A DNA stretch of 64,000 nt from Oscillospiraceae bacterium (lineage in GTDB: Bacteria > Bacillota > Clostridia > Monoglobales > Monoglobaceae), in the NCBI GenBank assembly GCA_015068845.1, contig SVJR01000004.1, forward strand, positions 10,779-74,778, given 5' to 3'. Under the pieces are notes generated by a model. It was not told the DNA's origin and made no database searches. It saw nothing but the letters and a program-made list of their open reading frames with translations. Shown here piece by piece: positions 1 through 64,000 of this stretch. A program made the position numbers and the translations under genes. Position 1 is the stretch's first letter; every line of letters begins with the position of its first letter.

Positions 1-688
1 TCATCTTTATGGTCTCGCCGGCACGGAGTGTTCCATCAATCACACGGACATAGGCAATTACGCCCTTGTAGCTGTCGTAGTACGAGTCGAAAATCAACGC
101 CTTGAGCGGAGCGTTTTCGTCACCCTGAGGCGGTGGAACTGCCTCAACAATTTTTTCAAGAACTTCTTCAATGTTTATTCCGTTTTTAGCGGAAATACAG
201 GGCGCAGACTGCGCCTCAATACCGATTACATCCTCAATTTCCTGCTTGACCACATCAGGCTGGGCACTGGGAAGGTCGATTTTGTTGATAACGGGAACCA
301 TCTCAAGGTCGTGTTCCAGTGCAAGATAGGTGTTTGCAAGGGTCTGCGCCTCAATTCCCTGAGCCGCGTCAACAATTAAAATTGCGCCTTCACACGCAGC
401 AAGGCTACGCGATACCTCGTAGTTGAAGTCAACATGACCTGGGGTGTCGATAAGGTTTAAGACATACTGCTGGCCGTCTTTCGCGTTATACAAAAGTCTT
501 ACCGCACGCGCTTTGATTGTTATGCCGCGCTCACGCTCAAGCTCCATATTATCGAGAATTTGTGCCTGCATCTCACGGTTTGTGAGCGCACCCGTAAGCT
601 CAAGAAGTCTGTCAGCAAGGGTTGACTTGCCGTGGTCAATATGCGCAATAATTGAAAAGTTGCGTATGTTCTTCTGGTACTCGTTCAT
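1..688 (-). CDS. lepA: Elongation factor 4 (LepA), 5' part only; the gene runs off the window start
   Basis: Reverse-strand translation from the ATG at 686-688 reads [29 protein letters not shown]...[16 protein letters not shown]...NKIDL, the typical LepA G-domain. Confidence 0.9.
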
Positions 689-1930: not shown

Positions 1931-5455
<3,525 letters not shown>

Positions 5456-5561
5456 AATATTATCACTCGACTTTCTGCTCACAAGAATACTCAAGCTATC
5501 CGGACTTCGTTATGAGCGTCTCGGTCCGGGGTAATTCTGGATTGCTGAGGTCAGCGGAAGA

Positions 5562-8500
5562 TTAGAACTCGTCGTCTGCACCGTCAATGTCACCAAGCAA
5601 ATCATCTGCAAGGAGGTCAAATGAATCGGCGTCTTCTTCCGGTTCCTCGTCCATAACGGTATCTTCAAAGTCATAGAAGAGGTCGCTTTCATCAAGAGCG
5701 TCTGCGTCCGCTTCCTCGCCTTCGGGCTGACCGAATGTGTTTTCGGGAGCGTCCTCTGCTCTGTCGATGTTAACCTGCAAATCTTCCGGCTCGTCATCAA
5801 GGTTTTCTTTCAGGATAACCTCGTTTCCGTCAGCGTCAAGGACCTTAACATCAAGAGCAAGGCTCTGGAGTTCCTTGATAAGAACCTTAAATGATTCGGG
5901 GATACCGGGCTTGGGTATATTCTCGCCCTTAACGATTGCCTCGTAGGTCTTAACACGGCCCACAACATCATCAGACTTAACTGTAAGGATTTCCTGGAGT
6001 GTATATGCTGCACCATAAGCTTCAAGTGCCCAAACTTCCATTTCACCGAATCTCTGGCCACCGAACTGAGCTTTACCACCCAGAGGCTGCTGAGTAACAA
6101 GTGAGTAAGGACCTGTTGAGCGGGCGTGAATCTTATCGTCAACCAGATGGGCAAGCTTAAGCATATGCATATAGCCTACCGTTACGCGGTTGTCGAAGGG
6201 TTCGCCGGTACGGCCGTCATAGAGAACGGTCTTACCGTCTCTCTCGTAGCCTGCCTGCTCGAGGGCATCCATAATATCTTCCTCGTTTGCACCGTCAAAT
6301 ACGGGGGTTGCAACCTTCCAGCCAAGAGCCTTTGCCGCATAGCCAAGGTGAACCTCAAGAACCTGTCCGATGTTCATACGCGAAGGTACGCCCAGGGGGT
6401 TAAGAACAATCTGGAGAGGTGTTCCGTCGGGAAGGAAGGGCATATCTTCTTCGGGAAGAATTCTCGAAATAACACCCTTGTTACCGTGACGACCTGCCAT
6501 CTTATCGCCGACAGAAATCTTACGCTTCTGAGCGATGTAGCAGCGAACTATCTGATTTACACCGGGGGGCAGCTCGTCGCTGTTCTCACGGGTAAATACC
6601 TTAACATCAACAATAATACCATATTCGCCGTGGGGTACGCGGAGTGATGTGTCACGCACTTCACGGGCTTTTTCGCCGAAGATTGCACGGAGCAGTCTTT
6701 CCTCGGCGCTGAGTTCGGTTTCACCCTTGGGTGTAACCTTACCGACCAAGATATCGCCGCTTTCAACCTCAGCACCGATGCGGATAATACCGCGCTCGTC
6801 AAGGTCTTTCAGCGCATCTTCACCAACATTGGGGATGTCACGGGTGATTTCCTCCGGACCAAGCTTGGTATCACGGGATTCAATCTCGTATTCCTCGATG
6901 TGGATTGATGTGAGGACATCCTCTTTTACAAGGCGCTCGTTAACGAGCATAGCATCCTCGTAGTTGTAACCTTCCCATGTCATAAAGCCAATGAGAATGT
7001 TGCGGCCAAGGCCGATTTCACCGTTCTTGGTTGAAGGACCGTCGGCAATGATGTCACCGGCTTCAACTCTCTCGCCCTCTGCAACGATGGGGCGCTGGTT
7101 AATACACATACCCTGGTTTGAACGGGTGAATTTGATAAGCTTGTAACGGTCGGTTTCGCCGCTGTCTGTCTTGATTTCAATGAACTGAGCCGAAACCTTT
7201 GAAACTGTGCCGGCATTCTTCGCAAGAACACAAACACCGGAGTCTTTTGCTGCCTTGTATTCCATACCTGTACCGATAATCGGTGACTCGGGGCAAAGCA
7301 GCGGAACAGCCTGACGCTGCATGTTTGAACCCATCAGCGCACGGTTAGCATCGTCGTTTTCAAGGAACGGAATCATTGCTGTAGCAATTGATGTAACCTG
7401 TCTGGGGGATACGTCCATATAGTCAACACGGCACTTGCCGGGTTCTGCTGATACTTCAAGGAATTCATCCTTATATCTTGTAACAACTCTCTTTGCAAGG
7501 AACTCGTTGTTCTCGCCGAGAGGCTCGTTTGCCTGAGCGATATAGAGACCGTCCTCCACATCTGCTGTCATATAGTCAACGATGTCGGTAACGCGGCCTG
7601 TCTCCTTATCCACTCTGCGGTAGGGAGCTTCAATAAAGCCGTACTCATTCACCTTTGCAAAGCCGGAGAGTGAGTTGATAAGACCGATGTTAGGACCTTC
7701 AGGTGTCTCGATAGGACACATACGGCCATAGTGTGAGGAATGAACGTCACGCACTTCAAAGCCGGCTCTCTCTCTTGAAAGACCGCCAGGACCAAGGGCT
7801 GAAAGTCTTCTCTTATGAGTAAGCTCACCCAGGGGGTTAATCTGGTCCATAAACTGCGAAAGCTGTGATGAACCGAAGAATTCCTTAACAGCCGAGGTCA
7901 CGGGACGGATATTGATAAGAGTCTGGGGTGTGATTGAATCGAGATCCTGAGTGGACATTCTTTCACGCACAACTCTCTCCATTCTTGAAAGACCGATTCT
8001 GAACTGGTTCTGGAGAAGCTCGCCAACGGATCTCAGACGACGGTTGCCCAGGTGGTCGATATCATCAACTGCACCGAGGCCTGCTGCCAGGTTGCCTACA
8101 TAAGAGATAGAAGCAATAATATCGTCAATAACAATGTGACGGGGGATAAGCTCGTCACGGCGTTCACGGAGCGCCGCCTTGAATTCGTCGGAATTCATAT
8201 CGGGGAACTCTGCGATAATTTCTTTAAGAACGCTGTAACGGACTTTCTCGTTAATTTCATAGTCGCGGGGGTTGTAATCAACCAAGTCGCGCATATCAAC
8301 CATGCCGTTTGAAAGGACATTGGTTGTATGCTCGTCGTCAACCTTGATGATAACCTTGCTGATATCAGCAACCTCAAGAGCACGAGCCATTTCCTTGGTA
8401 ATGGTCTCGCCTGCGGCAACAATCAGCTCACCTGTTTCGGGGTCAACAAGGTTCTCGGCTGAAACCTGTCCGACAATTCTGCCTGCCAGCTCCAGCTTTT

Positions 8501-38871: not shown

Positions 38872-38963
38872 GGAGAGGTGGTCGAGATGGTTTAAGGCGC
38901 AGCATTGGAAATGCTGTGTACGTTTATAGCGTACCGTGGGTTCGAATCCCATCCTCTCCTCCA
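38872..38963 (+). tRNA. tRNA-Ser (anticodon GGA) with a long variable arm and encoded CCA
   Basis: Acceptor GGAGAGG/CCTCTCC. Anticodon arm CAGCA-TTGGAAA-TGCTG. Variable arm GTACG..CGTAC. T-arm GTGGGTTCGAATCCCAT. A TTGATT-N17-TATACT promoter lies upstream. Confidence 0.9.
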
Positions 38964-59613: not shown

Positions 59614-59910
59614 TTACCTTGTTAATTCAACTTTAACATCATGATCCGAGTCATTATACAGCATAATTTCCAATAGCATTAATATCGTTTCATCACCTAA
59701 ATCCTTTTTGCTTTTGCCATAGTTTATCCACTTAATAGTGATGGGTTCATTATATTCATGTACACCAAACCCTCCACGCAATAAATCATTAAAGGCATGT
59801 ATATTATGCCCCGTCTTCCATTGCAAATTTTTTGTTAATAATTTATCTATTTCGTCATAGAAACCTTCCATGTCAGAAAAGTTATTGCCGTCTAATATGA
59901 ATGTGGTCAT
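59614..59910 (-). CDS. Barstar-family ribonuclease inhibitor, orphan
   Basis: FILDGNNFSDMEGFYDEIDKLL...GHNIHAFNDLLRGG...ITIKW follows the barstar layout (LDG..i.s.e.l...l...l.fP.yyG.NlDAl.DcL.g....p..i.W). Confidence 0.65.
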   Translation of the reverse strand: MTTFILDGNNFSDMEGFYDEIDKLLTKNLQWKTGHNIHAFNDLLRGGFGVHEYNEPITIKWINYGKSKKDLGDETILMLLEIMLYNDSDHDVKVELTR

Positions 59911-60042
59911 ATCTGTATCTCCTTCGTCAAATTGTTATTTGTCTTTCTACAACATTCGACAGTCTTTATAGTCTTATATCAAGTTAAGTCTAAAAACTAT
60001 TTATTTACATATACTAACCAAAAAACCAATGCGAGGTATTTT

Positions 60043-60483
60043 ATGATAGTTCTATTTTTGTGTATTCTTGCAATCTTTGCAGGGGTACTGGTCAACGCAA
60101 AATTCCGTGTTTTCACCTTTAAAACCTGTATCGCCTTTTCGCTGCTTTTAATTCTGTCGGTATTTTGTGGTCGGACACTGAACTTTTATGCGACCGTTCC
60201 CTACTGGGACAAAGTTCTCCACTTTGAGTCCGGCTTTATCTTTGCCCGTGCCGGCAAAGAGCTGTATCTCCGGCTTGGCGGAAGCTTAGAGAAAAAGTGG
60301 CTTTCCCTCTGTTTTTCGCTGTTTGCCGCCATTTCTGCCGCCGCAATTTGGGAAATATGGGAATTTGCCGGAGACAGCCTGTTTGGCTTAACCTCTCAGA
60401 ACAATTCCCTTCAAGACACTATGCTTGATATAATCCTCGGTTCTGTAAGCGGCGCAATATACTCCCTGTTTCTCCTCTTTTAA
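60043..60483 (+). CDS. Small integral membrane protein (possibly YjdF/DUF2238-like)
   Basis: About 4-5 TM helices and a WDKVLHFESGFIF motif. The start is the ATG at 60043, after GAGG. Confidence 0.5.
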   Translation: MIVLFLCILAIFAGVLVNAKFRVFTFKTCIAFSLLLILSVFCGRTLNFYATVPYWDKVLHFESGFIFARAGKELYLRLGGSLEKKWLSLCFSLFAAISAAAIWEIWEFAGDSLFGLTSQNNSLQDTMLDIILGSVSGAIYSLFLLF

Positions 60484-61403
60484 TCAAGCCTTGGCAACAT
60501 CCTGATTGCCGCAAGCAAATCACCCAGTTTATCCGACTTTTTGACCGCCTTGAAGGTCTTTTTCTCGTCGGGGAAATTCCACATTATATACATCCAGATT
60601 TCCTTCAGCTTATGGAGTGTGTAAACCTCCGAGCCGAGAACCTTTAAATACCGCTCCGCAAGAATATCGGTAAATTCTATAAGCTCCCGTGTTTCTAAGG
60701 CTCTGCCGCCCTTTATCTCGCGGAAAATTGCCGGATTCATAACCGCACCTCTGCCAAACATAACCCCCCCAAGGTTGGGGAATTTTTCGCAAATTTCAAT
60801 GTGCTCCGACCTTAAGAATACATTGCCGTTGTAGCAGACAGCGTTTTTGGATACGGTGTATGCCCTCTCAAAAACCGCCATATCCGGCTCGCCGTTATAG
60901 AAGTCCGCTCTTGCTCTAGGGTGAATTATCAGGCTTGTGAGATTATACTTGTTGTAAATCTCCATCAGCTTGTCCAGCTCCGCACCCGACGAAAAGCCTG
61001 AACGGGTCTTAATTGAGATTTTCAGCTTGCTCTCCGCAAACACCCCGTCCAAAAATTGGTCAACGCCCTCAACATCACGCAAAAATCCCGAGCCACGGTT
61101 CTTTTTGACCACTGTTCCCGAGGGACAGCCAAGATTAATATTTACGCTGTCATAGCCAAGTCCCCGTATTTTGTCCTCGAACTTTAGGAACGAGTCCGCA
61201 CGATTGGTCAGCACCTGCACCGTTACATTCGTCTTATTCACATCGGGGTTAATGTCCCTGAGGCACTTCATCCCAATCTTCTCGTTATCGCTGGGAGTGA
61301 TGAACGGTGCAAAGTACCCATCACAGCCGCCAAAGAATTCGGCGTGGGTGTTGCGGTATGTGTAGGTTGTTATGCCCTCAAGGGGCGCAAAGTAAAGGTT
61401 CAT
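60480..61403 (-). CDS. tRNA-dihydrouridine synthase family protein
   Basis: FAPLEGITTYTYRN...VNINLGCPSGTVVKKNRGSGFL is the Dus TIM-barrel active-site region. The start codon abuts the upstream stop codon. Confidence 0.85.
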   Translation of the reverse strand: MNLYFAPLEGITTYTYRNTHAEFFGGCDGYFAPFITPSDNEKIGMKCLRDINPDVNKTNVTVQVLTNRADSFLKFEDKIRGLGYDSVNINLGCPSGTVVKKNRGSGFLRDVEGVDQFLDGVFAESKLKISIKTRSGFSSGAELDKLMEIYNKYNLTSLIIHPRARADFYNGEPDMAVFERAYTVSKNAVCYNGNVFLRSEHIEICEKFPNLGGVMFGRGAVMNPAIFREIKGGRALETRELIEFTDILAERYLKVLGSEVYTLHKLKEIWMYIMWNFPDEKKTFKAVKKSDKLGDLLAAIRMLPRLD

Positions 61404-64000
61404 TTATTCTTCAATTCCCATTTCCAGTTCCTCCATCTTGTCACGGATGGTCCTCAGGAACTTTGTGTTTTCTGCATCAATATTGTACTGCTCCACAATC
61501 TCACGGACGCGGTTTTCAACACGAAGAACATCCTCTAAAAGTGCCCGTGCCGGAAGCCTGTACGCACCGCTACCAAAAATTATCATCTGCTCCAGTCCGT
61601 CAGAGGTGGCAACAGTTACCTTATAATTCCGACTTAATTCCTTTGCCGCCTTTTCGATATAAGCATCGGCGGTTTGTGCCTCCTTGGTATACACAACCGT
61701 TATGCCGTTGACACGCTCTGCCTCGCCCGGATTGCCCTTGACCTTGTAGGCATCAAATACCAGAATAATCTCGCAGTCACGAAAGATTTTGTACGCTGAA
61801 ATTCTGTCGGTCAGCGCACTCCGAGCCGCCTCTAAGCTGTCGCCTGCCAGCTTTTTCAGGTAGTCCCATGCAAAAATTATGTTGTAGCCGTCAATAAGCA
61901 GGTATTCCTTATCGAATTCCTTTTTCTTTTTAGGCTTGTACTCGTATTCGGTATTCGCCGGCTTTGGTGTCCGCATTGCGTGGTTGGGGTTTTTGCGTTC
62001 CACCTTGCCATAGGTGTGCTCAAAAATTTTCAGCAGCTCGTCATCAGACGCACCAATGTTTCCCGTCCGCCGCACCAAAGTGTGCTCGTCCGCCGCTCGC
62101 TGCGGCTTTAACACGCTTTCAAGGTGCATATTATCGCACACCTCGTCCCACTTCACAACAACACCTGCACCGTGAGAACAGAACACGCTGTCTGCCGTGT
62201 TTTCCACATCGGCATCGACATTATAACCAATCTCCTCAATTATCTTTTCTGCATTTTTACAAGGTCCGTAGTCACGAAAAGCGCAGCTGAGCTTGCCCTT
62301 ACCGTGGGTGTAGCCGACAAGCTCCCTCTGGTAGTTGCGTATTGCATCTGCCGCCACGCTGCCCGTAATACGGGTTTTGCCGCCCCAGGAATGAGGGAGT
62401 GTAAATTCCGCACCCATAAAGTTGAGGTCGGTCATTGCCTTGCCCACATTCTCGTCGGGGACTTCAAGGGTAAAGTCATAGTACGGCTCAAGCAGTACAC
62501 TTTTTGCACACCTCAGTCCGTGCCGCACCGCACGATAGGTCGCCTGACGGAAGTCGCCGCCGTCGGTATGCTTGATGTGGGCCCGCCCCGACCTTAATGT
62601 AACCTTTATATCAGTTATCGGCGAGCCGGTCAGAACACCTATGTGCGTCTTTTCCATCAGGTGTGTCATAACAAGTCTCTGCCAGTTTTTGTCCAAAATA
62701 TCCTCGCTGCAATCCGCCGCAAACTGCAGTCCCGAGCCACGGGGCAGCGGCTCTAAAACAAGATGTACCTCGGCATAGTGACGGAGCGGCTCATAGTGGC
62801 CAACCCCCTCAACTCTTGCCTCTATCGTTTCCTTATATACAATGCGCCCCTCTTCGAACTCGACATCCATATCAAACCGCTTTGAAATCATCTGCTTCAG
62901 CACCTCAAGCTGAATTTCACCCATTACCCGAAGCTGAATTTCCCGAATAGGTGCATTCCATTCAACATTCAGCTGGGTCTCCTCCTGTTCAAGCTGTCTC
63001 AGCCTTTCAAGAGCTGTTCCATTGTCCACGCCCTTGGGGAGAATAACCCGATAACTGAAAATCGGCTCTGCCGTCAGCTTTTCCGAATTTTCCTCGAACC
63101 CCAGACCCTGTCCGGCATAGGTTCTTGTGGGTCCCGTAACCGCACAAACACAACCACTTTCCGCAATGTCGCAGTTTTTATATTTTTCGCCGGAATAAAT
63201 CCGGATTTCATTTACCTTTTCGCCGCCTGAGGCATCCTTTAGAATGTCCTTGACCTTAAGGCTGCCACCGGTTATCTTCATATATGTCAGCCTTTGTCCC
63301 TTATCGTCCTGACCGATTTTGAAAACCTTTGCACCAAACTCGCTCGGTGCGGCACTTTGCACGGTGAGCCGTACAAACGCTTTCAGGAAAGTTTCAACGC
63401 CCTGCATTTTAAGGGCCGCTCCCGAAAATACGGGGAAAACATCACGGCGTTTAATCGCTTTTTTAACAAGCTCCTCATCGATTTTTCCGTCGTCAAGGTA
63501 CATCTGCATCAGTTTTTCATCGCACATTGCAAGATTCTCGCAAAGGGCCTCACGGTCGGGGTCGCAAAAGTCAATAAAGTTGCCGCCAAAATCGGCTTTC
63601 AGCTCGTCTATAACGCGCATCTTATCCGCTCCGTCAAGGTCAAGCTTGTTTATAAATATAAATACAGGGATATTGTACTTTTTCAGCAAATCCCAAAGGG
63701 TTTTTGTGTGACCCTGAATCCCGTCTGTTGCGCTGATTACAAGGGTTGCGTAGTCTAAAACCGCAAGGGTGCGCTCTGCCTCTGCTGCAAAGTCGATATG
63801 ACCGGGGGTGTCAACAAGGGTGATTTGGGTATCGTCTACCGACAAAACCGCCTGCTTTGAAAACACTGTTATCCCACGGCTGCGCTCTATTTCGTCGGTG
63901 TCGAGAAAGGTGTTTTGAGTGTCAACTCTGCCAAAAGTCCGGATTTCGCCCGCACAGTAAAGAAGCCCCTCAGAAAGAGTGGTTTTGCCTGCGTCTACAT
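61404..64000 (-). CDS. TetM/EF-G-like translational GTPase fused to a C-terminal YacP/Rae1-type NYN ribonuclease domain; the N-terminus lies beyond the window end
   Basis: G-domain VDAGKTTL (63990s), DTPGHIDF, NKLD. EF-G/TetM-like domains II-V (MGEIQLEVL, GVGHYEPLRHYAEVHLVLEPLPRGSGLQF). The C-terminal 167 aa (61407-61907), LLIDGYNIIFAW...ILVFDAYKVKG...VVYTKEAQTADAYIE...VATSD..EQ, closely parallel the recalled B. subtilis YacP/Rae1 sequence. Confidence 0.85.
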   Translation of the reverse strand, partial: VDAGKTTLSEGLLYCAGEIRTFGRVDTQNTFLDTDEIERSRGITVFSKQAVLSVDDTQITLVDTPGHIDFAAEAERTLAVLDYATLVISATDGIQGHTKTLWDLLKKYNIPVFIFINKLDLDGADKMRVIDELKADFGGNFIDFCDPDREALCENLAMCDEKLMQMYLDDGKIDEELVKKAIKRRDVFPVFSGAALKMQGVETFLKAFVRLTVQSAAPSEFGAKVFKIGQDDKGQRLTYMKITGGSLKVKDILKDASGGEKVNEIRIYSGEKYKNCDIAESGCVCAVTGPTRTYAGQGLGFEENSEKLTAEPIFSYRVILPKGVDNGTALERLRQLEQEETQLNVEWNAPIREIQLRVMGEIQLEVLKQMISKRFDMDVEFEEGRIVYKETIEARVEGVGHYEPLRHYAEVHLVLEPLPRGSGLQFAADCSEDILDKNWQRLVMTHLMEKTHIGVLTGSPITDIKVTLRSGRAHIKHTDGGDFRQATYRAVRHGLRCAKSVLLEPYYDFTLEVPDENVGKAMTDLNFMGAEFTLPHSWGGKTRITGSVAADAIRNYQRELVGYTHGKGKLSCAFRDYGPCKNAEKIIEEIGYNVDADVENTADSVFCSHGAGVVVKWDEVCDNMHLESVLKPQRAADEHTLVRRTGNIGASDDELLKIFEHTYGKVERKNPNHAMRTPKPANTEYEYKPKKKKEFDKEYLLIDGYNIIFAWDYLKKLAGDSLEAARSALTDRISAYKIFRDCEIILVFDAYKVKGNPGEAERVNGITVVYTKEAQTADAYIEKAAKELSRNYKVTVATSDGLEQMIIFGSGAYRLPARALLEDVLRVENRVREIVEQYNIDAENTKFLRTIRDKMEELEMGIEE

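Follow-up and report, generated by a model that had tools for sequence, protein, structure and literature searches.

The endoribonuclease Rae1 (YacP) of B. subtilis, a stand-alone protein of ~170 amino acids, cuts mRNA internally and in dependence on translation; it does so at ribosomes that have stalled or collided, and it feeds the tmRNA pathway (PMC12407103, PMC13622287). A preliminary description of the locus analyzed here took Rae1 to be an A-site endoribonuclease; that view is outdated according to Deves et al., and a 2026 preprint ties the enzyme to collided ribosomes and tmRNA (PMC13622287). The mode of Rae1 binding to the ribosome is still unresolved, with structural work under way (PMC12407103). 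Cleavage at a stalled ribosome followed by rescue is also known for SmrB of E. coli and for Cue2/NONU-1 acting with Hbs1-Dom34 (PMC13622287, PMC12407103); the likeness of these systems to the protein described below is one of functional analogy only, as their folds are unrelated (SMR versus NYN), and their sensor and nuclease are separate whereas here they form one chain. Proteins joining a Tet-like GTPase to an NYN_YacP domain have been reported twice, in both cases from purely bioinformatic work: Atkinson 2015 (BMC Genomics, PMC4342817) assigned such fusions from ten species of Clostridiales, with sequences given in Additional file 8, to the Tet subfamily and proposed a novel mechanism of resistance; Matelska et al. 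2017 (NAR, PMC5499597) noted "TetM-NYN_YacP fusion proteins" in Clostridia. The fusion architecture is therefore not new; what stands of the novelty first claimed for it is that our literature search found no functional study of the fusion.

The window (the whole stretch of 64,000 nucleotides that was analyzed) derives from an uncultured Clostridia bacterium and encodes a new sequence of this type. Judged from its sequence, the protein belongs to a large family of translational GTPase-NYN_YacP fusions in Clostridia and is encoded on the chromosome. The reading frame lies on the minus strand, as do all features given with coordinates below. From the right end of the window, where base 63998 is in frame, it stays open as far as the TAA stop codon at 61404..61406, which abuts the ATG of the next gene (GAAGAATAAATGAAC); it comprises 864 codons with no internal stop. 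The visible frame begins within the G1 motif, and because homologs with identities of 94% and 86% span 875 amino acids and start with MKRIAAGILAH, some 11 N-terminal residues of the window protein are expected beyond the window. The first ~11 codons and the promoter of the gene are past the window end. Pfam searches found GTP_EFTU, EF-G domains II to V, and NYN_YacP on one uninterrupted chain, bearing out the proposal of a single-ORF fusion between an EF-G/TetM-like GTPase and a Rae1-type domain. The G domain (63366..64000; residues 1 to 211; GTP_EFTU, E = 1.5e-43) is followed by domain II (63111..63338; residues 221 to 296; EF-G_D2, E = 1.5e-4), domain III (62853..63068; residues 311 to 382; EFG_III, E = 5.7e-6), domain IV (62505..62849; residues 384 to 498; EFG_IV, E = 5e-18), and domain V (62250..62498; residues 501 to 583; EFG_C, E = 1.4e-15).

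With intact G1 to G5 motifs and a catalytic His after DTPG, the N-terminal part belongs to the translational GTPase superfamily: G1 (VDAGKTT), G2 (T44), G3 (DTPGH, with H67), G4 (NKLD), and G5 (G193/A195/L196) are invariant among 121 sequences. The AlphaFold2 (AF2) model has a confident EF-G-like body, in which domain II is a beta barrel (block-mean pLDDT mostly 82 to 93, one block 76), and a confident NYN domain beyond a disordered tether. The best Foldseek matches to the whole model were ribosome-bound EF-G structures; only EF-G was returned, so that this search was uninformative for the junction module described below. Conservation peaks in domain IV, which has a mean column identity of 0.87 and a family signature, G[RK]AHxKHT[ED]GGDFR, that reads GRAHIKHTDGGDFR in the window copy. 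Taken alone, it matches EF-G better than the Tet proteins, and H474, in a region where loop 3 is SGRAHIKHTDGGDFR, aligns with H573 of T. thermophilus EF-G. The protein falls below the EF-G cut-offs, scoring 327 against 583 with NF009381 and 260 against 659 with TIGR00484 (NCBIfam/TIGRFAM). In domain IV, loop 1 lacks 4 residues relative to EF-G and 2 relative to TetO. The G' insertion is reduced, with 73 residues counted between G4 and G5; in EF-G roughly 120 residues separate these motifs.

Between domain V and the nuclease, the preliminary description had seen a K/E-rich linker. A disordered tether with a basic stretch is indeed present, but residues 584 to 632 and 650 to 672 match the enzymatic domains in conservation, and residues 583 to 623 are predicted to be folded. 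The first conserved part, a family-specific module delimited by conservation and the AF2 model (L1; 62103..62249; residues 584 to 632), comprises a helix (583 to 590), a beta hairpin (strands 604 to 608 and 611 to 615; ..ADSVFCSHGAGVVVKW..), and a second helix (617 to 623), with a block-mean pLDDT of 72 to 88 over 581 to 630. Its mean column identity is 0.80, and its motif DSVFCxHGAG (ADSVFCSHGAG in the window copy) is retained at 35 to 50% overall identity; it follows a segment that we read as corresponding to the C-terminal helix of EF-G. The flexible tether, delimited by pLDDT and conservation (61905..62102; residues 633 to 698), has pLDDT values below 50 at residues 633 to 650 and 664 to 694, with a helix at 652 to 663. 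This helix falls in the second conserved part (L3; 61983-62051; residues 650 to 672; ASDDELLKIFEHTYGKVE), whose conservation of 0.78 compares with 0.38 and 0.43 for the variable parts of the tether. The last 30 tether residues, just before the nuclease, are 26% K+R and 12% D+E. Across the family, between 85 and 217 residues separate SVFC from DGYN, and we take this variable length to argue against a rigidly held nuclease.

The C-terminal domain (61407..61904; residues 699 to 857, with a short C-terminal helix to 864) matches NYN_YacP over residues 700 to 857 with E = 1.1e-48 and 165.8 bits (PF05991 gathering cut-off, 24.6), in agreement with the earlier assignment of the last ~170 residues to the Rae1/YacP type. 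Compared with B. subtilis Rae1/YacP (PDB 5MQ8/5MQ9, residues 3 to 142), it is 42% identical over 139 residues (E = 1e-26), and D703, D749, D778, and D800, all invariant in the 121 sequences, align with Rae1 D7, D53, D81, and D104. Two of these residues are altered in the published catalytically dead Rae1, D7N D81N (PMC10351889). Chemistry similar to that of Rae1, together with a link to translating ribosomes, would be expected of this domain, and from the conserved motifs both the GTPase and the nuclease half look catalytically competent. In contrast to stand-alone Rae1, the domain forms the C terminus of an 875-amino-acid GTPase, and the cysS-mrnC-rlmB-yacP-sigH neighborhood typical of Firmicutes orthologs is absent at the fusion gene. 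The stand-alone homolog of C. difficile lies among cysS, an RNase III-domain gene, thyX, rlmB, and sigH; a search with this protein returned matches from Peptostreptococcaceae only. No second NYN gene was found within the window, nor was a stand-alone NYN gene found in 85 fetched loci.

The same architecture occurs in more than 120 close homologs (64 to 94% identity, the nearest database relative being the one at 94%) and, at the level of clusters formed at 50% identity, in 75 full-length representatives, whose GTPase part is 35 to 54% identical. A GTDB scan with two sequence patterns, one of them taken from L1, provided the phylogenetic survey that had been called for: relatives are encoded in at least 593 species representatives, all of one class, Clostridia. 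Among 80 loci fetched from GTDB, 70 have the full fusion architecture and 8 more are interrupted by contig ends. Hosts include Ruminococcus, Agathobacter rectalis, Lachnospira eligens, Intestinimonas, and Acetivibrio thermocellus. Aligned with R. albus 7 YP_004106010.1, one of the sequences of Additional file 8, the window protein has 53% identity across 851 residues, and it shares domain order, L1, L3, tether, NYN domain, and domain IV signature with the fusions of Atkinson and Matelska, from which it differs in nothing essential. The junction (L1 and L3) and domain IV signatures, which recur both in the family and in the published member sequences, were derived in the present analysis and not from these two papers. 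The sequence and model data show the fusion architecture, catalytic residues that are intact in both enzymes, the conserved family-specific domain IV tip, L1, the tether, and the wide chromosomal distribution.

Of the functions considered, recruitment of an mRNA nuclease to stalled ribosomes by its GTPase partner is, on these features, our best hypothesis. Specifically, we suggest, with a probability of roughly 45%, that the fusion is a stalled-ribosome factor in which a Tet/EF-G-like GTPase would dock at the factor site and carry a tethered, active Rae1-type mRNA nuclease. In its GTP form the protein would occupy the factor-binding site of the ribosome and extend domain IV to the decoding center, and the docked GTPase would recognize a ribosome that is stalled or collision-blocked; the recognized state may be one with an empty A site, as for TetM, or a rotated, translocation-blocked one, as for EF-G. 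The nuclease, on a tether of 65 to 190 residues, would then cut RNA outside the A site. GTP hydrolysis, triggered by the sarcin-ricin loop (SRL) of 23S rRNA, would release the factor, and the truncated mRNA would be passed to tmRNA rescue. Delivery of the nuclease into the A site, which the preliminary description implied, is an outdated proposal and, by reasoning from known EF-G and TetM complexes, sterically unlikely on the same ribosome, because domain IV would occupy the A site and the tether is disordered and of varying length; with domain IV there, the tethered nuclease would have to cut elsewhere. More tentatively still, the fusion might constitute stalled- or collided-ribosome surveillance in one polypeptide, the GTPase reading the factor site and the decoding center and thereby licensing cleavage of the adjacent mRNA. 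If so, Clostridia would possess a form of the Rae1-tmRNA rescue pathway that is gated by GTP, and as a corollary, mobile Tet(M)/Tet(O) may have descended from such housekeeping sensors of stalled ribosomes.

The way in which Rae1-type nucleases find ribosomes that have stalled or collided is still being worked out (PMC12407103), and a natural fusion present in so many species is an evolutionary hint that links Rae1 chemistry to recognition of the factor site. The family is at home in abundant gut and rumen Clostridia. Some of the Clostridia that carry the fusion are genetically tractable.

A doubtful alternative is that the enzyme is directed at rRNA or tRNA: the GTPase would dock on the 70S ribosome or its subunits, and the nuclease would cut ribosome-bound tRNA or rRNA, with the region of the 16S 3' end as one example, either to mature ribosomes and control their quality or to inactivate and turn them over under stress. 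The Rae1 mRNA cut site lies near the 16S 3' end, which speaks for such a target. So does the operon of stand-alone yacP with the genes for Mini-III and RlmB, which act in rRNA processing and modification (PMC5499597), a kind of context shared by the C. difficile stand-alone gene; moreover, the next gene in the window (60480..61403), whose start codon abuts the fusion, encodes an RNA-modifying enzyme of the Dus (dihydrouridine synthase) family (Pfam Dus, E = 1.6e-27). The Dus gene is probably cotranscribed with the fusion, and the arrangement is repeated in the relative with 86% identity. However, this neighbor is not conserved in the fusion family: of 79 loci, only 3 have a Dus gene no farther than 4 kb away, where adjacency was not required, and the gene is absent at the loci of further relatives that were inspected, so that we rejected it as a conserved partner and regard it as a local neighbor. 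Clustering of the neighbors at the 79 loci, a search for a conserved operon partner, revealed nothing shared by more than 5 loci, and rRNA-processing genes adjoin the fusion in none of them. In addition, B. subtilis Rae1, the sole characterized homolog, cleaves mRNA in a way that depends on translation (PMC12407103, PMC10351889), as the stalled-ribosome factor would.

It is improbable that the fusion is a genuine tetracycline ribosomal protection protein, in which the GTPase would dislodge the antibiotic from the A site and the nuclease would be an accessory or additional resistance mechanism. The five-domain EF-G-like architecture is shared with Tet(M)/Tet(O), which are also the best full-length sequence matches (TetO, 234 bits; TetM, 222; EF-G, 203); tet_protect is the best-matching NCBIfam model, several members bear NCBI product names of the TetM/TetW/TetO/TetS family, and the Tet-subfamily placement by Atkinson 2015, with its proposed resistance mechanism (PMC4342817), points the same way. 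Against this, all of the curated cut-offs are missed by far, with 400 bits against 775 for tet_protect (NF012153) and, for the TetM-type models, 272 against 1100 (NF033148) and 219 against 1420 (NF012155). The loop 3 tip of TetM domain IV, Ser508-Pro509-Val510, clashes with tetracycline (PMC7456112), whereas the aligned residues of the fusion are I475-K476-H477; the tip reads AH-x-KHT where Tet proteins have YYSPVS, and the TetM-type pattern Y[YS]P[VI]S occurred in 0 of 265 family members. The resemblance of domain IV alone to EF-G, noted above, likewise argues against a Tet protein. Further differences from Tet(M)/Tet(O) are the added L1, tether, and nuclease.

The setting of the gene is also at odds with a mobile resistance determinant, and we rejected a mobile-element context: the gene is chromosomal and has varied neighbors, with no transposon, and searches for plasmid and phage contexts placed family members solely on chromosome-sized records labeled as plasmid and on unannotated fecal contigs. 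The fusion gene shows no compositional anomaly. In a close relative, the gene has a promoter-like site of its own; its leader there is short, and no tet(M)-like leader or attenuator is present. Together with the ordinary chromosomal surroundings of the loci examined in a family spread through one class, these features make the fusion resemble a housekeeping gene spread across the lineage rather than a resistance gene that is mobile. The earlier caution that homology alone does not justify a tetracycline-resistance label is thereby vindicated, by the scores below the NCBIfam cut-offs, the missing Ser-Pro-Val tip, and the nonmobile context. Family members are nonetheless often annotated as TetM/TetW/TetO/TetS-family tetracycline resistance proteins despite failing the curated tests, and resistome surveys based on product names could thus be inflated.

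Very little speaks for a toxin or anti-phage abortive-infection effector, in which an activated ribosome-docking GTPase would deliver a translation-stopping nuclease. Fusions of nucleases with NTPases are common in defense systems; a barstar-family ORF lies ~1.5 kb from the fusion in the window, and a BrnT/CopG toxin-antitoxin pair adjoins the A. rectalis member. PADLOC, however, gave no defense match for the fusion protein or its neighbors, on which ground we rejected a defense system; an immunity or antitoxin partner is conserved in none of the 79 loci, and a single gene that occurs in ordinary chromosomal surroundings, in 593 or more species belonging to one class, is not what such an effector would lead one to expect.

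That a frameshift or misassembly merged a GTPase gene with a separate yacP gene can practically be dismissed, because the architecture is conserved across genomes: a corresponding uninterrupted ORF recurs in independent assemblies and isolate genomes, and the junction carries the conserved, family-specific modules. A separate NYN protein made from an internal start was rejected as well, as no start codon with a Shine-Dalgarno ribosome-binding site precedes the domain. Other combinations encountered in metagenomes (ABC_tran+NYN, Band_7+NYN, NYN+RNB+S1, and POTRA+NYN) look like chimeric assemblies or gene calls.

The minus-strand ORF at the right-hand end of the window encodes an EF-G/TetM-like translational GTPase and a Rae1/YacP-type NYN nuclease in one chain of 864 codons with no internal stop, ending at a TAA codon at positions 61404-61406. 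A Pfam profile search identified six domains in order: GTP_EFTU (residues 1-211; E = 1.5e-43), EF-G_D2 (residues 221-296), EFG_III (residues 311-382), EFG_IV (residues 384-498), EFG_C (residues 501-583), and NYN_YacP (residues 700-857; E = 1.1e-48). The NYN domain is 42% identical to the crystallized B. subtilis YacP/Rae1 (5MQ8/5MQ9; E = 1e-26). This domain order and the Rae1 alignment, found within one ORF, show that the preliminary description was correct in reading the gene as a single-ORF fusion and in expecting GTP_EFTU, the EF-G domains, and NYN_YacP in one chain. The visible ORF starts within the G1 motif (VDAGKTT); homologs that are 94% and 86% identical have 875 residues and begin with MKRIAAGILAH, which places the promoter and the first ~11 codons beyond the right-hand end of the window. 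The protein is a member of a large family already described, on bioinformatic grounds only, in previous work: Atkinson (2015; PMC4342817) gave fusion sequences and proposed assaying their RNase activity, and Matelska et al. (2017; PMC5499597) reported TetM-NYN_YacP fusions in some Clostridia, leaving their role open. Of the proteins listed by Atkinson, the one from R. albus 7 shares 53% identity with the window protein over 851 residues. The preliminary description was aware of no functional account of the fusion, which agrees with our full-text literature search for the fusion or its domains, where no functional study was found, but the fusion itself was already in print in 2015 and 2017; the recent Rae1 papers cited here do not mention it.

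Judged by their conserved residues, the GTPase and the nuclease halves both appear to be active enzymes. Across 121 sequences there is no variation in the G1-G5 motifs, the DTPGH His included, or in the NYN aspartates D703, D749, D778, and D800; the aspartates align with Rae1 D7, D53, D81, and D104, and Rae1 D7N D81N is a published catalytic-dead mutant (PMC10351889). Domain IV is the best-conserved region of the family (mean column identity, 0.87), with a loop 3 signature, G[RK]AHxKHT[ED]GGDFR, whose His matches H573 of T. thermophilus EF-G in the alignment, and a loop 1 that is 4 residues shorter than in EF-G. The region between domain V and the nuclease had been described as a K/E-rich linker, but it is not a simple spacer. 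Its first module, L1 (residues 584-632; ..ENTADSVFCSHGAGVVVKWDEV..MH..), has a conservation of 0.80, on par with the enzymatic domains, and its predicted fold consists of two helices flanking a beta hairpin (block-mean pLDDT, 72-88); a second segment, L3 (residues 650-672; DELLKIFEHTYGK), is a conserved helix. The remainder is predicted to be disordered (pLDDT < 50) and is poorly conserved, with 85-217 residues between L1 and the nuclease across the family and a basic stretch in the final 30 residues ahead of the nuclease. We also noted a possible 2Cys+2His ligand set, C580, C607, H609, and H625, in L1 (window positions 62103-62249, minus strand, plus C580). Close homologs either never vary at these positions or conserve them at 90% or more, and distant ones mostly retain them; the four residues could make up a candidate zinc site.

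In the 2017 model, which the preliminary description used in proposing GTPase-guided delivery of the nuclease to the A site, Rae1 is an A-site nuclease. That proposal is now outdated, as Deves et al. (2025; PMC12407103) located the Rae1 cuts on stalled ribosomes 12 nt upstream of the A-site codon; following collisions, Rae1 generates tmRNA substrates (Tetreault et al., 2026 preprint; PMC13622287). We propose, with a probability of about 0.45, that a factor-site GTPase docks on a stalled or collision-blocked ribosome, that the tethered nuclease cuts mRNA nearby, and that tmRNA rescue follows. The GTPase body, through its conserved domain IV tip and L1, would dock in the factor-binding site and decoding center of such a ribosome; domain IV would occupy the A site, and the nuclease would therefore not be placed there. 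Held on a long, disordered, length-variable tether that is basic at its end, the nuclease would most plausibly cut mRNA at the periphery of the docked ribosome or between it and a neighboring collided ribosome; GTP hydrolysis would then free the factor, leaving the cut mRNA as a substrate for tmRNA rescue. Stand-alone Rae1 cuts at the same kind of place. A role directed at rRNA or tRNA instead, in ribosome maturation or turnover, seems unlikely. The family offers a timely lead, open to direct testing, on the recruitment of Rae1-type nucleases to stalled ribosomes.

The family also matters for an annotation problem, in that resistance names are attached to proteins that fail tetracycline-protection tests. 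None of the defining tests for a tetracycline ribosomal protection protein was positive for the window protein: it scored 400 bits against the NCBIfam tet_protect cut-off of 775 and far under the cut-offs of the TetM/W/O/S models. In TetM, the loop 3 tip Ser508-Pro509-Val510 overlaps bound tetracycline (PMC7456112); these residues align with Ile-Lys-His in the window protein, and a TetM-type loop 3 motif was present in 0 of 265 family members. Domain IV alone is a closer match to EF-G than to Tet proteins. The earlier warning against annotating tetracycline resistance by homology was thus justified by both the profile score and the replaced tip, and genuine ribosomal protection against an antibiotic is improbable. 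NCBI nevertheless assigns several family members to the TetM/TetW/TetO/TetS family, while giving others the name "translation factor GTPase family protein" or simply "GTP-binding protein". Two members on chromosome-sized replicons labeled plasmids (L086, 3219-5807, and L087, 3117-5918; NZ_OY725736.1 and NZ_CP143948.1) carry different RefSeq names, "translation factor GTPase family protein" in one case and [quoted passage not shown] in the other.

In its genomic context the fusion looks like a stand-alone chromosomal gene of the housekeeping type. The next gene, for a Dus-family dihydrouridine synthase (60480-61403, minus strand), has its ATG on the base after the fusion stop (TAAATG), and this pair recurs in the 86% relative (loci L001 and L002); neighbors differ in members at 65-70% identity, the Dus pair is not found in more distant ones, and no neighbor family recurred in more than 5 of 79 family loci. 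In a close relative, a promoter-like site is followed by a leader of ~30 nt, in which no attenuator was found. A toxin or defense role is very unlikely; PADLOC returned no match for the fusion or its neighbors. In plasmid and phage collections, members occurred only on chromosome-sized records labeled plasmids and on unannotated fecal contigs. The A. rectalis copy adjoins a BrnT/CopG toxin-antitoxin pair. In the window, a barstar-family ORF (59617-59910, minus strand; Pfam E = 1.3e-07) is separated from the Dus gene by a DUF2238 membrane protein ORF (59932-60483, plus strand), and no barnase-like gene was found among the ORFs scanned around it. At a single locus (L003), a family member (5001-7601) is preceded on the same strand, at a distance of 46 bases, by an RNase J-like metallo-beta-lactamase/beta-CASP/RMMBL gene (3344-4954). 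The window also contains a LepA/EF4-like translational GTPase gene, truncated by the window start so that its N-terminal part is present (2-682, minus strand), and a tRNA gene (38872-38960, plus strand), its sole Rfam match above the gathering score.

The fusion is real, and a join created by faulty assembly is very improbable. GTP_EFTU, EFG_IV, EFG_C, and NYN_YacP occur together in all of the best 120 database homologs (64-94% identity, 862-930 aa). With the query limited to residues 576-864, which span the junction and the nuclease, an exhaustive search matched 427 representatives of 50%-identity clusters (E <= 1e-30); 75 of the 150 best were at least 820 aa long, and all 75 contained the GTPase part, 35-54% identical to that of the window protein. 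A GTDB scan of one genome per species, with two peptide patterns from the junction and nuclease, yielded at least 593 confirmed relatives among the 600 matching stretches listed. The sequencing or assembly frameshift that the preliminary description had allowed for is not borne out, since one uninterrupted ORF with the G1 motif, junction motif, and nuclease was found at 70 of 80 fetched loci (contig ends interrupt another 8). In the window gene, base composition is even along the fusion, and a search ahead of the nuclease domain found no ribosome-binding site paired with a start codon. The hosts are Clostridia, including Oscillospiraceae, Ruminococcus (R. flavefaciens among them), Eubacterium xylanophilum ATCC 35991, Intestinimonas butyriciproducens, Dorea, Faecalimonas, Anaerotruncus, and Monoglobus. 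At one GTDB locus (L065, 4654-6813), where the contig continues, the family ORF has no G1 motif and, measured between stops, spans just 720 codons; it may be a frameshift or pseudogene. Four metagenome proteins (P0131, P0245, P0253, and P0228) combine an NYN domain of the fusion type with a truncated ABC_tran, RNB+S1, Band_7, or POTRA region; they most likely reflect chimeric assembly or gene calling rather than new architectures.
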